Shown here: positions 25,589-33,333 of the stretch, in pieces
Layout of the letters: each line of letters starts with the position of its first letter
Numbering within the stretch: the stretch's first letter is position 1
Assembly (NCBI GenBank): GCA_023396535.1
Contig: JAEWWD010000080.1
Coordinates: forward strand, 1 to 33,333
Origin: Bacillota bacterium
Lineage (GTDB): Bacteria; Bacillota; Clostridia; Christensenellales; CAG-138
Length of the DNA: 33,333 nt
Direction: 5' to 3'
The notes under the pieces: generated by a model
Seen by the model: only the letters and a program-made list of their open reading frames with translations
Databases searched by the model: none
Told to the model about the DNA's origin: nothing
Made by a program: the position numbers and the translations under genes

Positions 25589-26542
25589 ATGGCTGTTATC
25601 TATTTGGCTGGCGGCTGCTTCTGGGGGCTGCAAAAATATATCGGCGAAATTCCCGGCGTGCTGAATACCATGGTTGGCTACGCGAACGGCGGTACGCAGA
25701 ATCCCAGTTATGAGGAGGTCTGCACAGGCTCCGGCCATACGGAAACCGTACGCGTGGAATACGACGCCGAAAAGCTGCCCCTCGCCTTTTTGCTGGAGCT
25801 CTTTTTCGAGGTCATAGACCCGCTTTCCGTCAACAAACAGGGGCACGACGTCGGCGTGCAGTACCGCACGGGCATTTATTATGAAAACGAAGCCGACCGG
25901 CCTGTCATTGAACAGGCGCTTGCCGGTTTGTCCCATCGTCTGGGCCGGCCCGTCGCCGTCGAATGTGCGCCGCTTCTTCAGTTCTTCCCGGCGGAAAACT
26001 ATCATCAGGATTATCTGGACAAACATCCCACGGGATACTGCCACATCAGCCGCGACAAAATCAAACAGGCGAAGTACGCGCGCGTGGACCCTGCGCGCTA
26101 CGCGGCGCAGGAAGAATCGGCGCTCAAACAAACGCTCTCCCCTTTGCAGTACGAGGTTACGCAGCACGCCGCCACGGAACCGCCCTTTCAGAACGAATTT
26201 CACGACGATTTCCGCGAGGGCATTTACGTGGACGTCACGACGGGCGAGCCGTTGTTCTCCTCTACAGATAAATTTCAATCCGGCTGCGGCTGGCCCAGTT
26301 TCAGCAAGCCCATCGATCCCTTCACGGTGCGCGAACGCCGGGATAATTCCTTCGGTATGCGGCGCACGGAAGTAAGAAGCCGCGTCGGGGATGCGCATCT
26401 GGGACATGTATTTCCGGACGGACCGCGCCAGGCGGGAGGGCTCCGGTACTGTATCAACAGCGCCGCACTGCGCTTTATTCCAAAAGACGACATGGAGCGC
26501 GAGGGGTACGGCGAATATCGTTCGTTTTTTACAAAAGCATAA
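25589..26542 (+). CDS. msrAB: Bifunctional peptide-methionine sulfoxide reductase MsrA/MsrB
   Basis: 317 aa with the MsrA motif GGCFWG, MsrB CGWPSF and RYCINS, and SD AAGGAGGG. Confidence 0.95.
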
Positions 26543-26574: not shown

Positions 26575-26603
26575 TTGACAAGCTTGTCCACACAGTATAT
26601 ATT
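26575..26603 (+). promoter_or_regulatory. Strong candidate sigma-A promoter, TTGACA-N17-TATATT
   Basis: TTGACA at 26575-26580 and TATATT at 26598-26603, about 20 nt upstream of riboswitch aptamer 1. Confidence 0.55.
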
Positions 26604-26621
26604 AATTTGTACCAGATAGGG

Positions 26622-26703
26622 TGAAAAAGGCAAAGTCGGTGAAAGCCGGCGGCGCAAAGCTACAGGGCCTACCGGTCAATGCGACCCAGGGCAGCCAGTT
26701 GCC
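26622..26703 (+). promoter_or_regulatory. c-di-GMP-I (GEMM-I) riboswitch aptamer 1
   Basis: aaGGCAAAgucgg-UGAAAG-ccggcgGCGCAAAGCuaCAGGGCCuaccggucaaugcgacccaGGGCAGCCAGUUGCC. It matches the remembered GEMM-I blocks: GGCAAA, a GNRA-type capped hairpin, RCGCAAAGC, and CAGCCRGYUGCC. Confidence 0.8.
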
Positions 26704-26747
26704 AAACCGCTTGGTGCAGGATAATTTGCCTGTGCTGTATTAAGCGT

Positions 26748-26789
26748 AACCGCAACTGACCAAGGGTCGGCTGCGGTTTATTTATTTCT
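26748..26789 (+). terminator. Intrinsic terminator (expression platform of aptamer 1)
   Basis: aaccgcaactgacc-aagg-ggtcggctgcggtt followed by TATTTATTTCT. The 5' arm gcaactg is complementary to the aptamer 3' strand cagttgc (26696-26702). Confidence 0.7.
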
Positions 26790-26830
26790 ATTCGGAAACA
26801 CGCGTTAAGTTGTGCGGAAGGAGGGGCGGT

Positions 26831-27985
26831 ATGGTCATCGTAGCGGCTGGGCTCTGCGTGTTGCTCATGTTCGGCGCCTTCGCGGTGGATATGAGTACGC
26901 TGTATGTAGAAAACACGCGGCTGCAGACGGCGCTGGACGCCGGTGTGCTGGCCGGCGCATCCATGCTGCCCGATACGGACGCCGCTATTTCAGAAGCGAG
27001 GTCCTACATACGCGCCAACGGCTTTTCTACGGATAACATTACATTCTCTTTTAAAAACGACGACATGATCATCACAGCGGAAGGAAAGGAAACCGTGGAC
27101 GCGGGCTTCTCCCGCGTGATGGGATATGCGAAACACGACGTGGCTGCCACAGCCAGCGCGGAAAAATACATAACCTCCGCCACGGGCCCCTTTGCGTATT
27201 TGCTGTTCAGCGGCGATCCCAATCATACGCTCAACCTGGGCGGCCGCTTTGATATTGCCGGCAGCGTGCACGCCAACGGTTCCCTGTATGCATCGCCGTC
27301 ATATGGGGTTATACAGGGCGCGGCAGAAGCGTGCAAAACAGTATATTGCAATGAATCGACCATGACAGTGGGTACCGAAGCGCCCGAGGCAGACTTTATA
27401 GATATGCCCGATTTCACATCCGTGGTAGCGGGGGTGCTTCCCTCAAGTTATGATACTGTTCTGACTCCCGCCCAAGTCGCAGATCCCTGGTGGAAGCAGA
27501 CTTTTACCGGCAATACGTATGTGTCGGGAAATTGCAGGATATCCAACCAGTGTATCGTGAACGGCGTGTTGTATGTGAACGGCGACCTTACCATCGACGG
27601 CGGATCCCCCGTATGCGAACTCAACGGCACCATATTTGCCACAGGCAAAATCACTTTTAACAACACGTTTGTGGGTACAGGCAACGTGTTCGCCAACGGA
27701 AATATAACATTCCAGGGCGGCGGCATGCAATTGCGCGCAACCGATTCAGTCTGCGCCTACTCCGCGAACGGAAATATTTATATGGTCACCAACAGCACGA
27801 CGGTGACTGGCATTATTTATGCGCCCAAAGGCAGTATTACTGTCCAAGGAAATAACACAACGTATATCGGAAGTATTATAGGCAATCGTATCGTCGGCGT
27901 GCCGGCCAACCTGACCATGCGGGCGCCGGACGAACCCTTCCCGTTTGCTGGCGGCGGTGAGGAAGCCATACGGCTTGTCAGATAA
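26831..27985 (+). CDS. TadG-like pilus-associated protein (Tad_N/TadE-G-like N-terminus plus repeat-rich C-terminal region)
   Basis: ATG 26831 with SD GGAAGGAGGGG. The N-terminus VIVAAGLCVLLMFGAFAVDMSTLYVENTRLQTALDAGVLAGA matches the TadG N-terminal pattern. The C-terminus has iterated G/N-rich strands (NGDLTIDGG, ATGKITFNN, ANGNITFQGG, PKGSITVQGNN). Confidence 0.75.
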   Translation: MVIVAAGLCVLLMFGAFAVDMSTLYVENTRLQTALDAGVLAGASMLPDTDAAISEARSYIRANGFSTDNITFSFKNDDMIITAEGKETVDAGFSRVMGYAKHDVAATASAEKYITSATGPFAYLLFSGDPNHTLNLGGRFDIAGSVHANGSLYASPSYGVIQGAAEACKTVYCNESTMTVGTEAPEADFIDMPDFTSVVAGVLPSSYDTVLTPAQVADPWWKQTFTGNTYVSGNCRISNQCIVNGVLYVNGDLTIDGGSPVCELNGTIFATGKITFNNTFVGTGNVFANGNITFQGGGMQLRATDSVCAYSANGNIYMVTNSTTVTGIIYAPKGSITVQGNNTTYIGSIIGNRIVGVPANLTMRAPDEPFPFAGGGEEAIRLVR

Positions 27986-28057
27986 TGACGAAAATTTTTA
28001 TATATTGGCGTTTGAAAGCGTTTTGTTCGGTTTAAGTATAAATACCAAAGCGATATT

Positions 28058-28136
28058 TATAATGGCAAAGCTGCCGAAAGGCAGTGACGCAAAGCTACAG
28101 GGCCTAAAGGCGCAAGCCTATGGCAGCCAGTTGCCG
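28058..28136 (+). promoter_or_regulatory. c-di-GMP-I (GEMM-I) riboswitch aptamer 2
   Basis: auGGCAAAgcugcc-GAAA-ggcagUGACGCAAAGCuaCAGGGCCuaaaggcgcaagccuauGGCAGCCAGUUGCCg. Confidence 0.85.
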
Positions 28137-28167
28137 CTTGATTGATCACAGCCGCCTGTGATATTGT

Positions 28168-28202
28168 GGCAACTGCGCAAAGCGGTTGCCTTTCGTGTTT
28201 TT
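28168..28202 (+). terminator. Intrinsic terminator (expression platform of aptamer 2)
   Basis: ggcaactgcgc-aaa-gcggttgcc followed by TTTCGTGTTTTT. The 5' arm ggcaactg is an exact complement of the aptamer 3' strand cagttgcc (28128-28135). Confidence 0.75.
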
Positions 28203-28271
28203 GCAGCCGCGGAAATAGTACGAACACGAATTTGCCGCCTCTTACAGGCGGCGGGACCAAGGGGAAAGGGG

Positions 28272-28487
28272 ATGATAGCGTATAACGGGCGGTCAAACGC
28301 CAATGGCTTCGCCAACTCCGGAGCGTTTGCCGCGATATTTCCCGGAAGGATGCTGCAAGGCTGTTTGGGCGGCGCGCTCATCGGCCGGGTATCTCAACGA
28401 CGATCAGAGCCTGCACGGCAGGCGCAAGCTGCGGTCCGCGCTAGGCGGACAGTTTGGACCAGACCGACGGCCCCTATGGGGCAATGA
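28272..28487 (+). CDS. Candidate small ORF (71 aa) between riboswitch 2 and riboswitch 3; speculative
   Basis: The ATG is preceded by AAGGGGAAAGGGG. The product is MIAYNGRSNANGFANSGAFAAIFPGRMLQGCLGGALIG... followed by an Arg-rich tail. No homology was recognised, and codon bias is weak in the second half. Confidence 0.15.
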   Translation: MIAYNGRSNANGFANSGAFAAIFPGRMLQGCLGGALIGRVSQRRSEPARQAQAAVRARRTVWTRPTAPMGQ

Positions 28488-28517
28488 AACTGCTAGTTGC
28501 AAAAGTACTCTTCAACG

Positions 28518-28598
28518 ATAATGGCAATGCAGCCGAAAGGCTGTCTGCGCAAAGCTACAGGGTCTAAAGGCCTCACGGCCCATGACAGCCAGCTGCCG
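28518..28598 (+). promoter_or_regulatory. c-di-GMP-I (GEMM-I) riboswitch aptamer 3
   Basis: auGGCAAUgcagcc-GAAA-ggcugucUGCGCAAAGCuaCAGGGUCuaaaggccucacggcccaugaCAGCCAGCUGCCg. Confidence 0.8.
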
Positions 28599-28810
28599 AA
28601 TGAAGCAACGCTTTTGTTTACGGATACGTCCCCCGTACTCCCACACGGGCGGACAGCGTCCAATCCCTGATAAGGAGCGGCGCACATCGTAGACTTTAAG
28701 CCGGCATTCGGTAAACGAGTGGTGGCTTTTCCTTTTCCGGCCCCCGCATGGGCGGGAAAGGGAAGCTTCAGGAAGGCAATCTCTCTTTTACATCCAAAGG
28801 AGGCCCAGCG

Positions 28811-29458
28811 ATGCTCATACTCCTGTTCGCCCTTGCGGGTGCTATCTGCTCCGTCCCCATCCGGCTGCTGACACGGCAGCTGGTGGCGGCGCGCGGCGGA
28901 CGCCCCGACGAAAGCCGCCTGTTGAGCGGCGTGCTTTCGGCGGCCTTGTTTACGGCATTGGGCGCGCTGGGCTTCGCTCTCTTATCCGCCGTAATCCCCA
29001 TGACGGATATTGTCCGGCTCATACAGTTCCTGCTGGTATTCCTGATACTCTTGAGCCTGAGCGCGGTGGATATCGTCGTCCGGCGCATCCCCAACGAGCT
29101 GCTGCTGGCGCTGATACTCGTATATGCGCTTGGGCATACGCTCAATGTGGGCTGGTCCGGAATAACCACAAATCTCTTGGGGGCGGCCATCGCAGCCATA
29201 TTGTTCACGCTTCCAGCCCGTCTGGGTCTTCAGATCGGTTGGGGCGATATCAAGTACGCGGTCGTGATAGGCTTCTGCTTTGGTCTCGCGGGGCTTTTAC
29301 AGGTAACGCTGGTGATGGGCCTGGGGTTAGGCCTGTACGCCGCTTACCTCTACATCAGCCGCCGGGGGGGGCTCTTTACCTCCGCCGCGATCGGCCCGTA
29401 CCTGTCCTTAGGCGCGGTGGCCACAATGGTGTTTCCAGTGTTCACTACTATTTTTTAA
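28811..29458 (+). CDS. tadV: Prepilin peptidase, A24 family (TadV/CpaA-like)
   Basis: ATG 28811 with SD AAAGGAGG. It is polytopic with two catalytic-Asp contexts (SAVDIVVRRIPN and GWGDIKYAVV). Confidence 0.85.
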   Translation: MLILLFALAGAICSVPIRLLTRQLVAARGGRPDESRLLSGVLSAALFTALGALGFALLSAVIPMTDIVRLIQFLLVFLILLSLSAVDIVVRRIPNELLLALILVYALGHTLNVGWSGITTNLLGAAIAAILFTLPARLGLQIGWGDIKYAVVIGFCFGLAGLLQVTLVMGLGLGLYAAYLYISRRGGLFTSAAIGPYLSLGAVATMVFPVFTTIF

Positions 29459-29505
29459 CGCAACCACAACTATATAATCAACAGAATTTGAGAGGAGATA
29501 CAGGA

Positions 29506-29697
29506 ATGAAGAAGTTCATGGATATACTTCGCGATGAAAACGGCCAGGGCATGGTGGAGTACGGCCTCATCCTGGGCCTGATCGCACTCGTGGCCATTGC
29601 TGCGGTTGTATTGCTCGGCGATGGCGTAACTGACATCTTCACTGGTGCAAAAGACAAACTGGATACGGTTCCCGGCGTAGAACTTCCTGCTTCCTGA
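29506..29697 (+). CDS. flp: Flp/Fap-family type IVc pilin
   Basis: 63 aa with SD GAGAGGAG. The product MKKFMDILRDENGQGMVEYGLILGLIALVAIAAVVLLG carries the Flp motif (G/XXXXEY followed by a hydrophobic stretch). Confidence 0.85.
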   Translation: MKKFMDILRDENGQGMVEYGLILGLIALVAIAAVVLLGDGVTDIFTGAKDKLDTVPGVELPAS

Positions 29698-29716
29698 TCA
29701 TAGCAATGGTGACTTT

Positions 29717-29752
29717 GAATGTCCGCCCGTGCACAGGCGCGGGCGGACATTC
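29717..29752 (+). promoter_or_regulatory. Perfect 13-bp stem-loop just after flp (possible attenuator or mRNA-stability element)
   Basis: gaatgtccgcccg-tgcacaggcg-cgggcggacattc. There is no U-tract after it. Confidence 0.4.
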
Positions 29753-29781
29753 TACCCCTTAGGAGAAAGGAGGGCCGCGAT

Positions 29782-30177
29782 ATGAGAACTATGCAGGGAC
29801 TGCGCGCAAACAGTGAACGGGGACAGGCTCTGGTAGAGACTGCAATTACGCTGCCTTTGCTACTGCTCCTCCTGATGGGCATCATGGAGTTCGGCTGGTA
29901 TTTCTATAACCAGATGAGCGTGGAAAACGGCAGCCGAGAAGGCGTCCGCTACGCCATTGTCAACGCGGACTCTTCAACGCTTACGGCGGACGTCACCGAC
30001 CTGGTGGAAAGCGTCGTGGTGGGTCCCGGTGAAATGACCGTATCGGTCACAAAGGGCACGGATAAAATCACGGTGACCGTAACGAAGGACGTCGCCACGC
30101 TGACGCCAATCGCCGCCATATTCACAACGGGGAATACGTTTGAGCTTACCTCTTCCACCCAAATGAAGATAAGATGA
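29782..30177 (+). CDS. tadE: TadE-like pseudopilin/minor pilin
   Basis: ATG 29782 with SD AAGGAGGG. ERGQALVETAITLPLLLLLLMGIMEFGWYFYN is the TadE N-terminal signature. Confidence 0.8.
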   Translation: MRTMQGLRANSERGQALVETAITLPLLLLLLMGIMEFGWYFYNQMSVENGSREGVRYAIVNADSSTLTADVTDLVESVVVGPGEMTVSVTKGTDKITVTVTKDVATLTPIAAIFTTGNTFELTSSTQMKIR

Positions 30178-30295
30178 CGCTATGGGGCCTGCAACCTGCC
30201 CCAACGGTCCATCCTCATACAGTATAGCAGGAAGCATCCGCCACTACGGGCGGTATTGATAAATACGGGACGCGTGTGTTGGCGCGGGAGGGCTC

Positions 30296-31030
30296 ATGAA
30301 AAAGATCTATATCATAGCGGTATTCGTGGCGATACTGACGGGGGCGGCCGTCTATCTGTATGCCCAGAAGCTGGACAGGCAGGCGACCGTCGTCATCCCC
30401 ACGGGCACCGTCGTGATAGCGGTCACCTCCATACCCGAGAACACGAAAATCACCTCCGAAATGGTAACCCTGCAGAAAACCGCCCTCGAATGGATCAATG
30501 CGGACGCCGTCGTCTCCCTATCCGACGTGGTGGGAAAGATCAATAAGTACTGGGTTCCCGCCGGGCAGCAAATCGTACGCGCGCAGCTCAGCGAAGTAAA
30601 AAGCGGCACGGAGGGCGGACAGCTCTCCTATGTAGTGGAGCAGGGCAAGCGCGCCATCACGCTTTCCACCGATGAAATCGCGGGCGTTGGCGGGTATTTG
30701 AGCAAGGGCGATTACGTAGATATCCTGTCCACCATTACGCTTAAAGAAAAAGATGAGGAAGGGAACGACATCGATATCCCCGCGACCGAGGTCGTGCTGG
30801 AAAATATCCGCGTGCTGGAGGTGGGCTCCCACGCGCAAAACGAAAGCTCGAAAGCGGAGGATGGGGAAAAGAGCTTCTCCTACGGCTCCGTGACGCTAAG
30901 TATATCCCCCGAGGACGCGACAAAGCTTTATTACGCCATCAGCTACGGCCGTGTATATCTGACGCTGCGCGCGCCGCAGGACGATAAGCTCGTATCGCCG
31001 CCCTTATACGTCTGGGACGGCAACAACTAG
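30296..31030 (+). CDS. cpaB: Flp pilus assembly protein CpaB/RcpC (SAF domain)
   Basis: 244 aa with an N-terminal TM segment (IYIIAVFVAILTGAAVYLY), a SAF-like region (VVIAVTSIPENTKITSEMV) and an RcpC-like C-terminus. Confidence 0.85.
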   Translation: MKKIYIIAVFVAILTGAAVYLYAQKLDRQATVVIPTGTVVIAVTSIPENTKITSEMVTLQKTALEWINADAVVSLSDVVGKINKYWVPAGQQIVRAQLSEVKSGTEGGQLSYVVEQGKRAITLSTDEIAGVGGYLSKGDYVDILSTITLKEKDEEGNDIDIPATEVVLENIRVLEVGSHAQNESSKAEDGEKSFSYGSVTLSISPEDATKLYYAISYGRVYLTLRAPQDDKLVSPPLYVWDGNN

Positions 31031-31039
31031 GGGGCGCAT

Positions 31040-32161
31040 ATGGAACAGCTCAAGGTATTCGTCATCAGCACCGATAAGGAAGTCCGCTATCGCCTCAAGG
31101 GCATATTGGACGCGGACGACATCGCCATCGTCGGCTACGGCGAAGGCACGGCGTCCTCCGTGCAAAAGGCGCAGGGGTTACAGCCCGACGTCGCGGTACT
31201 CTATTATGAGAATGCGGCAGTGCTGGATGTGGCGCAGCGCATTTACCAGAACGTGCCCGGCTGCGCGCTGGTACTGCTGTGCGACAGCCTCACCATACAG
31301 CTTACCAAAGAGGCGCTCGCCGCAGGCATACGCCTGCTCGTTTCATCGGATGATGAGCCCGCCGCCATACTCGACGCCGTACGCCGCGCAGGCACGCTGG
31401 AGCATACGCGCGCGGGCGCCACGCAGGGGCCGTCGGCGCTGAAATCCCGCGTCATCAGCGTATATTCGGGCAAGGGCGGTACGGGAAAAACCACAATCGC
31501 GGTCAATATCGCGACAGCTTTAGCCAAGCAGGGGCGCAAGACGGCCATATTGGATCTCAACCTCGAATTCGCCTGCGCGGCGCTCTACCTCGACATACAG
31601 GCCAAGGATACCATTGCCGAGCTTGCGCAGGAGCGCGGCAACCTGACGATGGACGTACTGCGCGGCTTCACCGTGCAGCATTACAGCGGACTTACGGTGC
31701 TGAGCGGCCCCAATTCGCCCGAAAGCGGCGAGTTCGTGGAAGCGCGGCATGTGGAAAGCGCGCTGTCTGTGATGCGGCCCTTCTTTGACTGCATCGTGCT
31801 GGATCTTCCCAGCAATTTCTCGGATACCACCATCGCCGCCATGGAGAACAGCAACCGCGTGCTCGTCGTGATGCAGCCGGATCTTGGAAGCATAAAAGCC
31901 GCCTATCTGACGACGACGGTGCTAACCTCCCTGCAGATGCAGGAAAAAATCAGCTACGTATACAACAAGGACTGCAAAGGCTTCCTCTCCATAAAGGACG
32001 CACAGCGCGTGCTGAACGTTCTGCCCGAATATGTACTGCCGCGCGACGACAAAACGGCTGACCGCTGCCAGTGCATAGGCCGTCCCGTAGTGCTCGAAGA
32101 ACCGCGCACGGCCCTGGGCAAACAGCTCAAACAAATGGCGCTGGGGGTATACGCGCGATGA
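31040..32161 (+). CDS. tadZ: TadZ/CpaE: atypical receiver domain fused to a MinD/ParA-type ATPase
   Basis: 373 aa with a deviant Walker A (YSGKGGTGKTTIAVNIA). The N-terminal ~120 aa have a receiver-like topology. Confidence 0.85.
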   Translation: MEQLKVFVISTDKEVRYRLKGILDADDIAIVGYGEGTASSVQKAQGLQPDVAVLYYENAAVLDVAQRIYQNVPGCALVLLCDSLTIQLTKEALAAGIRLLVSSDDEPAAILDAVRRAGTLEHTRAGATQGPSALKSRVISVYSGKGGTGKTTIAVNIATALAKQGRKTAILDLNLEFACAALYLDIQAKDTIAELAQERGNLTMDVLRGFTVQHYSGLTVLSGPNSPESGEFVEARHVESALSVMRPFFDCIVLDLPSNFSDTTIAAMENSNRVLVVMQPDLGSIKAAYLTTTVLTSLQMQEKISYVYNKDCKGFLSIKDAQRVLNVLPEYVLPRDDKTADRCQCIGRPVVLEEPRTALGKQLKQMALGVYAR

Positions 32162-33333
32162 GCCTGATGGCACGCATGAACAAAAACGCCGCCGAGACGG
32201 CGGCGCCGGAAGAGCGCGCCTCCGCACAGGGCACGGCCGTCGCCGCGCCCGCCAATGAGACGCGGCAGGAGCAATACCAGATCATCATAGACCTGGTTCG
32301 CAGCGCCGTGATCGATAAGCTGCGGGGGCAGGCAAGCGAACCGGACGCCGCGCAGGTACAGGCCGTCATCAACGATGTGCTGCTCGATCATGCCGATACC
32401 ATTACGCGAGTGGAGCGCACCCGGCTATCCGGCGTGCTGTTCAACGAGGTCATGGGCCTCGGGCCGCTGGAGGAGCTGTTAAGCGATACCAACATTACGG
32501 AAATCATGGTCAACGGCCCTCGGCACGTATTTGTGGAAGAGCGCGGCAAGCTCCGTTTATCCGACGTGCGGCTGCGGGACGACGAAGCCGTCATGCAGAT
32601 CATTGAAAAAATCGTGGCCGCCATAGGCCGCCATGTGGACGAAGCCAGCCCCATGGTGGACGCGCGTTTGAAAGACGGCTCCCGCGTGAATATCATCATA
32701 CCGCCGCTGTCGCTGACGGGGCCGGTCATCACCATACGAAAATTCTCCAAAACGCCGTTCACCGTGCACGACCTTATCGACTTCGGCTCGCTTACCCCGC
32801 GCATGGCGGGCTTCCTGGAATCGTGCGTCAAAGGCAACCTGAACATCATGGTGGCGGGCGGCACGGGCAGCGGCAAAACGACGCTTCTCAATGTGCTCTC
32901 CGCCTACATTCCACAGGACCAGCGCATCGTCACCATCGAGGACGCGGCGGAGCTGCAACTGAACCAGCAGCATGTCATCACGCTGGAAAGCCGCCCGGCC
33001 AATCTGGAAGGCAAGGGCGAAATCACAATCCGCGACCTCGTGCGAAACGCCTTGCGCATGCGCCCCGACCGTATCATTGTGGGCGAGGTGCGTTCGGGCG
33101 AAGCGCTGGACATGCTGCAGGCCATGAACACCGGCCATGACGGTTCCTTAACCACCGGCCACGCAAACTCCCCGCGCGACATGATCGCGCGTATCGAGAC
33201 AATGGTCATGATGGCGGGCGTGGAGATGCCGCTGTTCGCCATCCGCAGCCAGATCGCCTCCGCGCTGGACTTAATCGTGCAGCAAAGCCGCCTGCGCGAC
33301 GGCACGCGTCGCGTGACCAGCATTACGGAGATC
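32158..33333 (+). CDS. tadA: CpaF/TadA secretion ATPase (partial, runs off window end)
   Basis: My translation from ATG 32158 (ATGA overlap with tadZ) gives ...ITEIMVNGP...[18 protein letters not shown]...Walker [13 protein letters not shown]...Walker B RIIVGEVR...His box [13 protein letters not shown]. It is absent from the ORF track because it has no stop in the window. Confidence 0.9.

Follow-up and report, generated by a model that had tools for sequence, protein, structure and literature searches.

The 33,333-nucleotide (nt) stretch that we analyzed, hereafter the window, is the start of contig JAEWWD010000080.1 (assembly GCA_023396535.1) from an uncultured, gut-type Bacillota bacterium of the Clostridia. 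Near its end it carries a Tad/Flp pilus locus in which the genes msrAB and a tadG-like gene are followed by a long leader and then by the tadV-flp-tadE-cpaB-tadZ-tadA operon (Table 1). The order from tadV to tadZ, first read from the DNA in a preliminary description of this stretch, is borne out by Pfam, and tadA by the T2SSE annotation of identical contigs; the Shine-Dalgarno sequence (SD) AAAGGAGG of tadV also lies where it had been placed, at ~28796. The subject of this analysis is the leader between tadG and tadV, which contains two aptamers of the cyclic di-GMP class I (c-di-GMP-I, or GEMM-I) riboswitch family, together with a third aptamer of this family ahead of tadG. A Pfam scan of the other open reading frames (ORFs) of the window identified no c-di-GMP turnover genes.

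An Rfam 15 cmscan of the whole window returned three full-length matches to RF01051, each covering model positions 1-87 of 87 and all on the + strand. The two leader aptamers, numbered 2 and 3 and placed beforehand at ~28058-28136 and ~28518-28598, agree well with the Rfam boundaries and score far above the gathering score of 35 bits, and the signature blocks listed for them, GGCAA, a GAAA tetraloop, CGCAAAGC, CAGGG and CAGCCAG(U/C)UGCC, are all visible in the Rfam alignment. The title of the preliminary description named only these two and omitted aptamer 1, which its own numbering implies. Known ligand contacts in this class are G20, A47 and C92 in Vc2 numbering, with G20 contacting the G-alpha of the ligand (PMC6140456). 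When G20 is equated with model position 11, a correspondence that we deduced from the Vc2 sequence, all three window aptamers have G at this position (the first G of GGCAA), and all three have CGCAAAGC, GCC past hairpin 2 and the GAAA loop. None has the A at position 20 that distinguishes 3',3'-cyclic GMP-AMP (3',3'-cGAMP) aptamers of the GEMM-Ib type. Aptamers 2 and 3 are genuine members of the GEMM-I class and are predicted to bind c-di-GMP. A permissive cmscan of 27950-28850 gave these two aptamers and otherwise just a chance match to mir-204 (E 0.96), and a further RNA family in the leader was rejected on this basis.

Table 1. Features of the Tad/Flp locus and its riboswitches in the window (RS, riboswitch; bp, base pairs; MFE, minimum free energy).
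Feature	Position	Strand	Basis
msrAB	25589-26542		Pfam
Sigma-70-type promoter of RS1, TTGACA-17-TATATT, 11/12	26575-26603	+	promoter scan; strong
Aptamer 1, before tadG-like gene	26619-26706	+	RF01051, 72.1 bits; kept in all orthologous loci
Terminator T1, hairpin 26748-26778 and UUUAUUUAUUU	26748-26788	+	fold, sequence
TadG-like pilus protein (Tad + DUF7305)	26822-27985	+	Pfam
Putative promoter of tandem leader, TTGAAA, non-optimal 19-nt spacer, TATAAA	28012-28042	+	sequence; weak
Aptamer 2, G at G20 position	28054-28138	+	RF01051, 80.6 bits, E 1.5e-14
Aptamer-2 3' strand CAGUUGCC, 5' half of antiterminator 2, partner 28168-28175	28128-28135	+	MFE, 7 orthologs
Terminator T2, 9-bp hairpin 28168-28190 and UUUCGUGUUUUU	28168-28202	+	terminator scan, fold
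Non-conserved spacer	28203-28496	+	no conserved ORF, no Rfam family, no convincing promoter
5' strand of P1-like closing helix, GCAAAAGU 28499-28506 and CUUCA 28510-28514	28499-28514	+	CAAAAG invariant in 11/11
Aptamer 3, G at G20 position	28513-28600	+	RF01051, 70.2 bits, E 5.3e-12
Aptamer-3 tail: switching sequence CCGAAUG 28596-28602; closing-helix 3' strand UGAAG 28601-28605 and GCUUUUGU 28610-28617	28596-28617	+	
Central domain, closed by GUUUACGGAU 28616-28625 and AUCGUAGAC 28686-28694	28616-28694	+	folds; GUUUAC and GUA(G/A)AC blocks conserved
Terminator T3, hairpin 28698-28728, U-tract UUUUCCUUUUCC 28727-28738	28698-28738	+	terminator scan, folds, 8 orthologs
Read-through hairpin, T3 U-tract with downstream purine tract	28727-28765	+	fold
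SD AAAGGAGG of tadV	28796-28803; ATG at 28811	+	sequence
tadV, prepilin peptidase (Peptidase_A24)	28811-29458	+	Pfam
flp	29506-29697	+	Pfam
tadE	29719-30177	+	Pfam
cpaB/RcpC	30296-31030	+	Pfam
tadZ	31040-32161	+	Pfam
tadA, T2SSE, incomplete at window end	open frame past tadZ to 33333	+	annotation of identical contigs
tadV-flp-tadE-cpaB-tadZ-tadA operon	28811-33333	+	Pfam; T2SSE on identical contigs; open frame

For comparison we collected orthologous loci by scanning species-representative genomes on the basis of TadZ and metagenomes with a DNA pattern; all of these loci are from metagenome-assembled genomes (MAGs) of uncultured Oscillospiraceae/Clostridia. The order msrAB-RS1-tadG-RS2-RS3-tadV is found in six of these loci (L001, L003, L004, L007, L011 and L013) and partially in L006, while L010 and L012 are identical to L004 over the compared aptamer-2 segment.

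Aptamer 2 is followed by a hairpin and U-tract, terminator T2, which had been recognized beforehand as GGCAACUGCGCAAAGCGGUUGCC plus UUUCGUGUUUUU and which a terminator scan found independently as GGCAACTGCGCAAAGCGGTTGCC (28168-28190) and then TTTCGTGTTT. The 5' arm of T2, GGCAACUG, is the exact complement of the aptamer-2 3' strand CAGUUGCC, a strand that comprises the 3' strand of the second aptamer hairpin plus C92/C93, and the antiterminator formed by these two sequences is the unconstrained MFE structure of 28054-28215. Among seven orthologous leaders 95% of cells in the T2 pairing are paired, relative to 24-57% when the partners are slid against each other. The 7-bp core of the antiterminator is paired in 7/7 orthologs, with one compensatory change of A-U to G-C in the subclade of L004, L011 and L007. 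At this same position the 5' strand of aptamer 2 itself co-changes in that subclade, from GCUAC to GCCAG, indicating that one substitution is tracked in three places. Since the T2 5' arm is a complement of the aptamer strand and does not overlap it, ligand should free the arm and let T2 form, and we predict that RS2 switches transcription OFF. This is the mutually exclusive layout, and the sign, that the preliminary description had proposed. Specifically, without ligand CAGUUGCC would pair with GGCAACUG and T2 would be blocked, and with c-di-GMP CAGUUGCC would be kept in the aptamer, T2 would fold and transcription would end near 28200.

Aptamer 3 had been described as lacking a canonical terminator and as having an output of unknown sign, and neither statement survives. 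Roughly 100 nt 3' of this aptamer is terminator T3, a hairpin of 12 bp with one G-G mismatch and a folding energy of -17.8 kcal/mol that runs directly into UUUUCCUUUUCC, a U-tract that is broken by CC in the window. An equivalent of T3 is present in 8/8 tandem orthologs, with hairpins of -17.8 to -20.8 kcal/mol and a U-tract directly after (UUUUUAUUU, UUUUUAAUU, UUUUCAAUU and others). A MAFFT alignment put the T3 3' arm one column off, and T3 was realigned separately. In this dedicated alignment of the eight orthologs 90.4% of cells are paired relative to 21-58% when slid, and three pairs are changed on both sides, as seen for example in GCCAUC/GGUGGC, GCCGUC/GACGGC and CCGCC/GGCGG. A GC-rich hairpin directly before a U-rich tract, the hallmark of an intrinsic terminator, is thus common to T1, T2 and T3.

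The 5' arm of T3 includes CAUUCGG (28705-28711), which is invariant in 11/11 sequences and is the exact complement of the likewise invariant aptamer-3 tail CCGAAUG, a tail that starts with the ligand-pairing C92. Within T3 the A of CAUUCGG lacks a partner in 5/8 orthologs and the U in 3/8. As CAUUCGG is invariant, yet its A and U are often mismatched in T3, a constraint beyond the terminator must conserve these two positions, and the obvious candidate is pairing with the aptamer-3 tail. The tail is also part of a clamp around the aptamer, a two-part P1-like helix composed of (G/A)CAAAAG(U)/(G)CUUUUGU and CUUC(A)/(U)GAAG. All 11 of 11 sequences have this closing helix, with energies from -9 to -13 kcal/mol and z-scores from -1.3 to -3.1 relative to shuffled flanks, and in the L002 clade a C-G pair is replaced by A-U. 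In the folds a central helix, GUUUAC(GGAU)/(AUC)GUAGAC, encloses the variable domain between the tail and T3 and brings both together. Given that this geometry is the same as that of RS2, c-di-GMP should hold the tail, release CAUUCGG and let T3 form, and RS3 is predicted to be a second transcriptional OFF switch. Without ligand, CCGAAUG including C92 would pair with CAUUCGG ~100 nt downstream, the two being juxtaposed by the central helix; with c-di-GMP the tail would be locked in the aptamer and the P1-like closing helix, T3 would fold and transcription would end near 28735. In line with such a switch, RS3 folds in which either the antiterminator or the terminator is enforced are only 0-7 kcal/mol apart, with the antiterminator being the MFE in L007 and L011. 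Another terminator candidate, AAGC-AAC-GCUU plus UUUUGUUU directly after aptamer 3, was rejected, as it has a stem of just 3-5 bp that the L002 clade is unable to form; this block is better explained by the CAAAAG/CUUUUG and GUUUAC/GUAGAC pairing.

Overall, we interpret the leader as two complete, independent c-di-GMP-I riboswitches in series, each of them OFF, a reading to which we assign a probability of roughly 0.6. Each aptamer has its own expression platform, T2 and T3 respectively, and there is no intervening ORF. Transcripts that start 5' of aptamer 2 meet T2 and then T3, with nothing else between, which is the series arrangement envisaged in the preliminary description. Such transcripts would have to escape both terminators, which would give a steeper fall in expression relative to a single switch. 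Two outputs had been considered at the outset, a sharpened response from switches of the same sign and a band-pass from switches of opposite sign. Since both switches have the same predicted sign, a sign that is deduced from geometry, the tandem would be of the type that has already been named 'pseudo-cooperative' and the band-pass idea falls.

Several observations weigh against this OFF/OFF serial model. Even without ligand, the MFE structure of RS3 in the window is the terminator state, by a margin of 4.6 kcal/mol. The RS3 antiterminator has just 7 bp, formed over ~100 nt, and it is without covariation support because its sequence is invariant. The covariation that we describe rests on few independent lineages, roughly two subclades. 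The window promoter 5' of aptamer 2 is weak, with a 19-nt spacer, and was missed by a standard promoter scan. A TTGACA-16-AAAAGT sequence, read by eye, lies just 5' of aptamer 3 in L004, L007 and L011, and the long spacer between T2 and aptamer 3 (310 nt in the window, ~125 nt in L004 to ~850 nt in L013) leaves room for an internal promoter. Finally, an OFF response of an adhesive pilus is contrary to the usual c-di-GMP paradigm.

The points concerning promoters bear on the alternative that the two aptamers are separate units, with aptamer 3 driven by its own spacer promoter (non-sigma-70 or with a weak -10) such that RS3 alone gates most tadV mRNA and RS2 acts on an upstream minority. We regard this alternative as unlikely, but it has substance. 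Apart from the variable spacer, the weak window promoter and the TTGACA-16-AAAAGT sequence, it draws on four loci, L002 (4121-4340), L008 (4600-4830), L014 and L015, that have the aptamer-3 ortholog alone, aptamer 2 having been lost or never present, indicating that something else 5' of this aptamer must drive the operon there. Against it, the window, L001, L003 and L013 lack the TTGACA-16-AAAAGT candidate, and the -10 of this candidate overlaps the invariant CAAAAG that is paired with the invariant CUUUUG in 11/11 sequences, so that a downstream start would delete this strand. A relaxed-threshold sigma-70 scan across 11 leaders, which has low power, revealed no site above 8/12 in the T2-aptamer 3 spacer of any ortholog, as compared to sites of 12/12 (a perfect TTGACA-17-TATAAT) just 5' of aptamer 2 in L004, L006 and L007. 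At the position homologous to the aptamer-2 promoter there is also a TTGACA in L003 and a TTGACG in L013. The promoter that the preliminary description placed upstream of aptamer 2 fares accordingly: its TTGAAA is present at 28012-28017, and the site 5' of aptamer 2 is the sole one that is corroborated by orthologs, but it is weak here. Even with a spacer promoter, upstream transcripts would pass both switches regardless, since only T2 lies between them.

We rate an additional internal promoter between T2 and aptamer 3 as improbable, though credible enough to keep in mind. That aptamer 3 is reached by read-through alone is something we infer, and it stays at that level because the promoter scans have little power. 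Three kinds of internal promoter candidates were rejected: an internal sigma-70 promoter, for which the relaxed scan across the 11 leaders showed nothing conserved; TATAAT at 28058-28063 and GATAAT at 28517-22, which are inside the conserved 5' flanks of the aptamers and would truncate them; and a SigD-like -10 (CGATAA) before aptamer 3, which is without a matching -35 and would also truncate the aptamer.

A second alternative, which we consider quite unlikely, is that aptamer 3 has the opposite sign or acts at another level, either as an ON switch or translationally via the hairpin at 28727-28765 and the SD, which would generate a band-pass or a bi-mechanism device. A strong hairpin without a U-tract had been noted at ~28727-28757. 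The hairpin is real and, in the window, very stable; it extends to ~28765, however, and its 5' arm is the T3 U-tract itself, indicating that it forms only in read-through RNA. Of the orthologs, L001 alone has it in a strong form; L003 and L013 have weaker versions and L004, L006 and L007 have none, and in our view it is not the RS3 expression platform. The region 28727-28810 of the window also has pyrimidine tracts (the T3 U-tract CUUUUCCUUUUCC, and CUCUCUUUU at 28781-28789) that oppose purine tracts (GGGCGGGAAAGGGAAG and the SD AAAGGAGG), and a predicted CUCUUUU/AAAGGAG pairing could mask the tadV SD in the window and in L001 only. Further points in favor of this alternative are that Bc1, a known c-di-GMP-I riboswitch that regulates both transcription and translation, has a long platform (PMC11218506), and that the L002 clade keeps the aptamer and CAUUCGG without the U-tract, which suggests a non-termination mechanism in relatives. 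The conservation of T3 with its U-tract in 8/8 tandem orthologs, its covariation, and a 5' arm that is complementary to the aptamer tail and not overlapping, which is OFF geometry, all argue against it.

The single aptamer-3 ortholog of the L002 lineage retains CAAAAG, GCUUUUGUUU and GCCGGCAUUCGG. In place of a hairpin with U-tract this lineage has a GC hairpin immediately 5' of the SD, with CAAUCGG/CAACCGG overlapping the region of the SD. Its platform is different and possibly translational.

It is very unlikely that the region instead makes a stand-alone product, such as a ~150-nt T2-terminated RNA that acts in trans or a small protein from the spacer. The window does have a 71-aa ORF (28272-28487) with the SD-like AAGGGGAAAGGGG, and a GGAGGUG(A/G) motif recurs ~60-90 nt past T2 in L001, L003 and L013 and past the tadG stop codon in L002, L008 and L015. 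The spacer ORFs (71, 72 and 109 aa), however, have no Pfam match and their peptides no tblastn match in the orthologous leaders (E > 0.6), L001 is without an equivalent ORF, the start codons behind the motif are not conserved, there is a frameshift difference between L002 and L008, and blastn of the window spacer against the orthologs detected no nucleotide similarity. Coding potential of the spacer was rejected on these grounds. With no conserved ORF between the aptamers, RNA from the aptamer-2 promoter must pass both switches, as the serial model holds.

The orphan SD-like purine motif, at 28262-28274 in the window and at ~4051 in L001, ~3975 in L003, ~6483 of the reverse complement in L013 and ~4001 in L002, may be a ribosome-binding or mRNA-stabilizing element. 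The spacer of L013 (7270-8190, minus strand) is built of tandem 84-224-nt repeats that are rich in GC palindromes, each with CGCGCGC-nnnn-GCGCGCG and then AAGGA(A/G)AAC, and that resemble repetitive extragenic palindromic (REP) elements in look.

An invertible, phase-variable cassette holding the promoter, aptamer 2 and T2 within the repeat 28004-28015/28293-28304 is hardly credible: the perfect 12-nt inverted repeat, which 0/200 shuffles reach, and its 18-nt arm at 78% do bracket exactly this module, and an invertible switch beside a c-di-GMP riboswitch is known at C. difficile flgB (PMC5386303), but the repeat is absent from L001, L003, L004, L006 and L007, 5/5 same-species assemblies are 100% identical in one orientation, contigs cross the right arm unbroken and no recombinase gene is among the annotated genes of the window. 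The 18-nt arms lie at 27952-27969 and 28303-28320, on either side of the -35 box, aptamer 2 and T2. On the right the repeat is uninterrupted, and on the left its two parts are separated by 34 nt with the tadG stop codon.

Analysis of aptamer 1 revealed that RS1 (26575-26789) is a complete c-di-GMP-I riboswitch of the same design as RS2, with the 5' arm of T1, GCAACUG (26752-26758), being complementary to the aptamer-1 3' strand CAGUUGC (26696-26702); the ligand response is again predicted. RS1 would gate the adjacent tadG-like gene, such that the pilus locus would be gated at three points and expressed only at low c-di-GMP. A terminator scan from the tadG stop codon to aptamer 2 identified no terminator-like site, indicating that read-through RNA from RS1 may also enter RS2.

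In sister species the G20 position is A in aptamer 2 of L001 (~3852, AGCAUAG) and of L003 (~3739, AGCAAAG) and in aptamer 3 of L013 (7185-7270, minus strand, AGCAACG). The G20A change is linked to 3',3'-cGAMP or bispecific binding (PMC6140456, PMC9481103), and one tandem member may sense a different dinucleotide in these species. A more elaborate model would have RS1 to RS3 act as three OFF switches in series on read-through RNA, with the pilus made at very low c-di-GMP and with the G20A tandems of L001, L003 and L013 working as a two-input NOR gate for c-di-GMP and 3',3'-cGAMP; we consider this model rather improbable. The tandem logic gates tabulated in the literature include no such NOR combination (PMC9481103).

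Much of this architecture is familiar. Sherlock et al. (2022) list 347 doublets and 12 triplets of c-di-GMP-I riboswitches, the most of any riboswitch class, define tandem by the lack of an intervening ORF, describe the 'pseudo-cooperative' sharper response, and cite the validated B. thuringiensis Bc3-5 triplet (PMC9481103). The leader described here resembles those tandems in having at least two riboswitches of one class in a 5' untranslated region (UTR), each with its own terminator and no ORF between, for which a steeper, digital response is predicted. It differs from them in the unusually wide spacing of its units (310 nt past T2, and as much as ~850 nt in the L013 ortholog), in the long-range platform of the second unit, in its target, which is a Tad/Flp operon of Oscillospiraceae-like MAGs, and in the presence of a third switch one gene upstream. 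The tandem principle itself reportedly originated in 2007 with the work of Welz and Breaker on tandem thiamine pyrophosphate (TPP) riboswitches.

The gene association is also known, as Weinberg et al. (2007) included cpaA among GEMM-associated gene families and found tandem copies in one UTR to be frequent (PMC1950547), and here, too, a GEMM-I element precedes the gene of the Tad prepilin peptidase (cpaA/tadV) and is present in tandem within a single UTR. In their common design, however, the terminator 5' side overlaps the aptamer 3' stem, which predicts an ON switch, whereas here it is complementary to the 3' strand and OFF is predicted. A parallel to this sign is C. difficile Cd1 ahead of the flgB operon, a class I aptamer in the Clostridia with ligand-induced termination of a surface appendage operon (PMC9262584, PMC5386303, PMC11477304). 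Cd1 is an OFF-switch (PMC9262584), whereas ligand-induced termination is a prediction here, and it is a single switch on flagella, whereas here it is a pilus operon that is predicted to be OFF. Flagella are under the class I switch in C. difficile, where the type IV pilus operon follows a class II riboswitch (PMC11477304). Bc1 (PMC11218506) resembles our leader in that a class I aptamer is followed by a long structured platform and that several terminator-like elements precede the ORF. It differs in that a single aptamer comes with two terminators, separated by 28 bp, and in that it showed no in vitro c-di-GMP response, whereas here there is an aptamer per terminator. When the literature was searched for c-di-GMP-I riboswitches of tad/flp genes in Clostridia, no specific report was retrieved.

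The locus is a clear example of a well-documented riboswitch architecture, and as the tandem arrangement, ligand class and gene association have already been described it leaves the general view of riboswitches unchanged. Somewhat unusual are the predicted OFF response for a pilus, the 100-nt separation between the switching sequence and T3 in RS3, and the third switch one gene upstream. The class II riboswitch of the C. difficile type IV pilus operon is an ON switch. If our reading, which is a prediction from sequence and folds in both its OFF/OFF sign and its series action, is true then this bacterium and its relatives would make Tad/Flp pili only at low c-di-GMP and would turn them off abruptly by means of two or three RNA checkpoints in series, a sign opposite to the textbook rule linking c-di-GMP to adhesion and to that C. 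difficile operon. The locus would also offer a compact natural template on which to measure the sharpening of a dose-response by identical switches in series, and its aptamer-3 platform is predicted to be a case where a 7-nt junction sequence controls a terminator 100 nt away.

Finally, aptamers 2 and 3 have blocks of 81-96% identity in common. Three short-read Logan contigs from the species of the window (L018, L019 and L020) end at window positions 27960, 28026 and 28117, which are within or just 5' of aptamer 2, and these breaks were likely caused by the shared blocks. Tandem riboswitches could thus be collapsed or split by assemblers.

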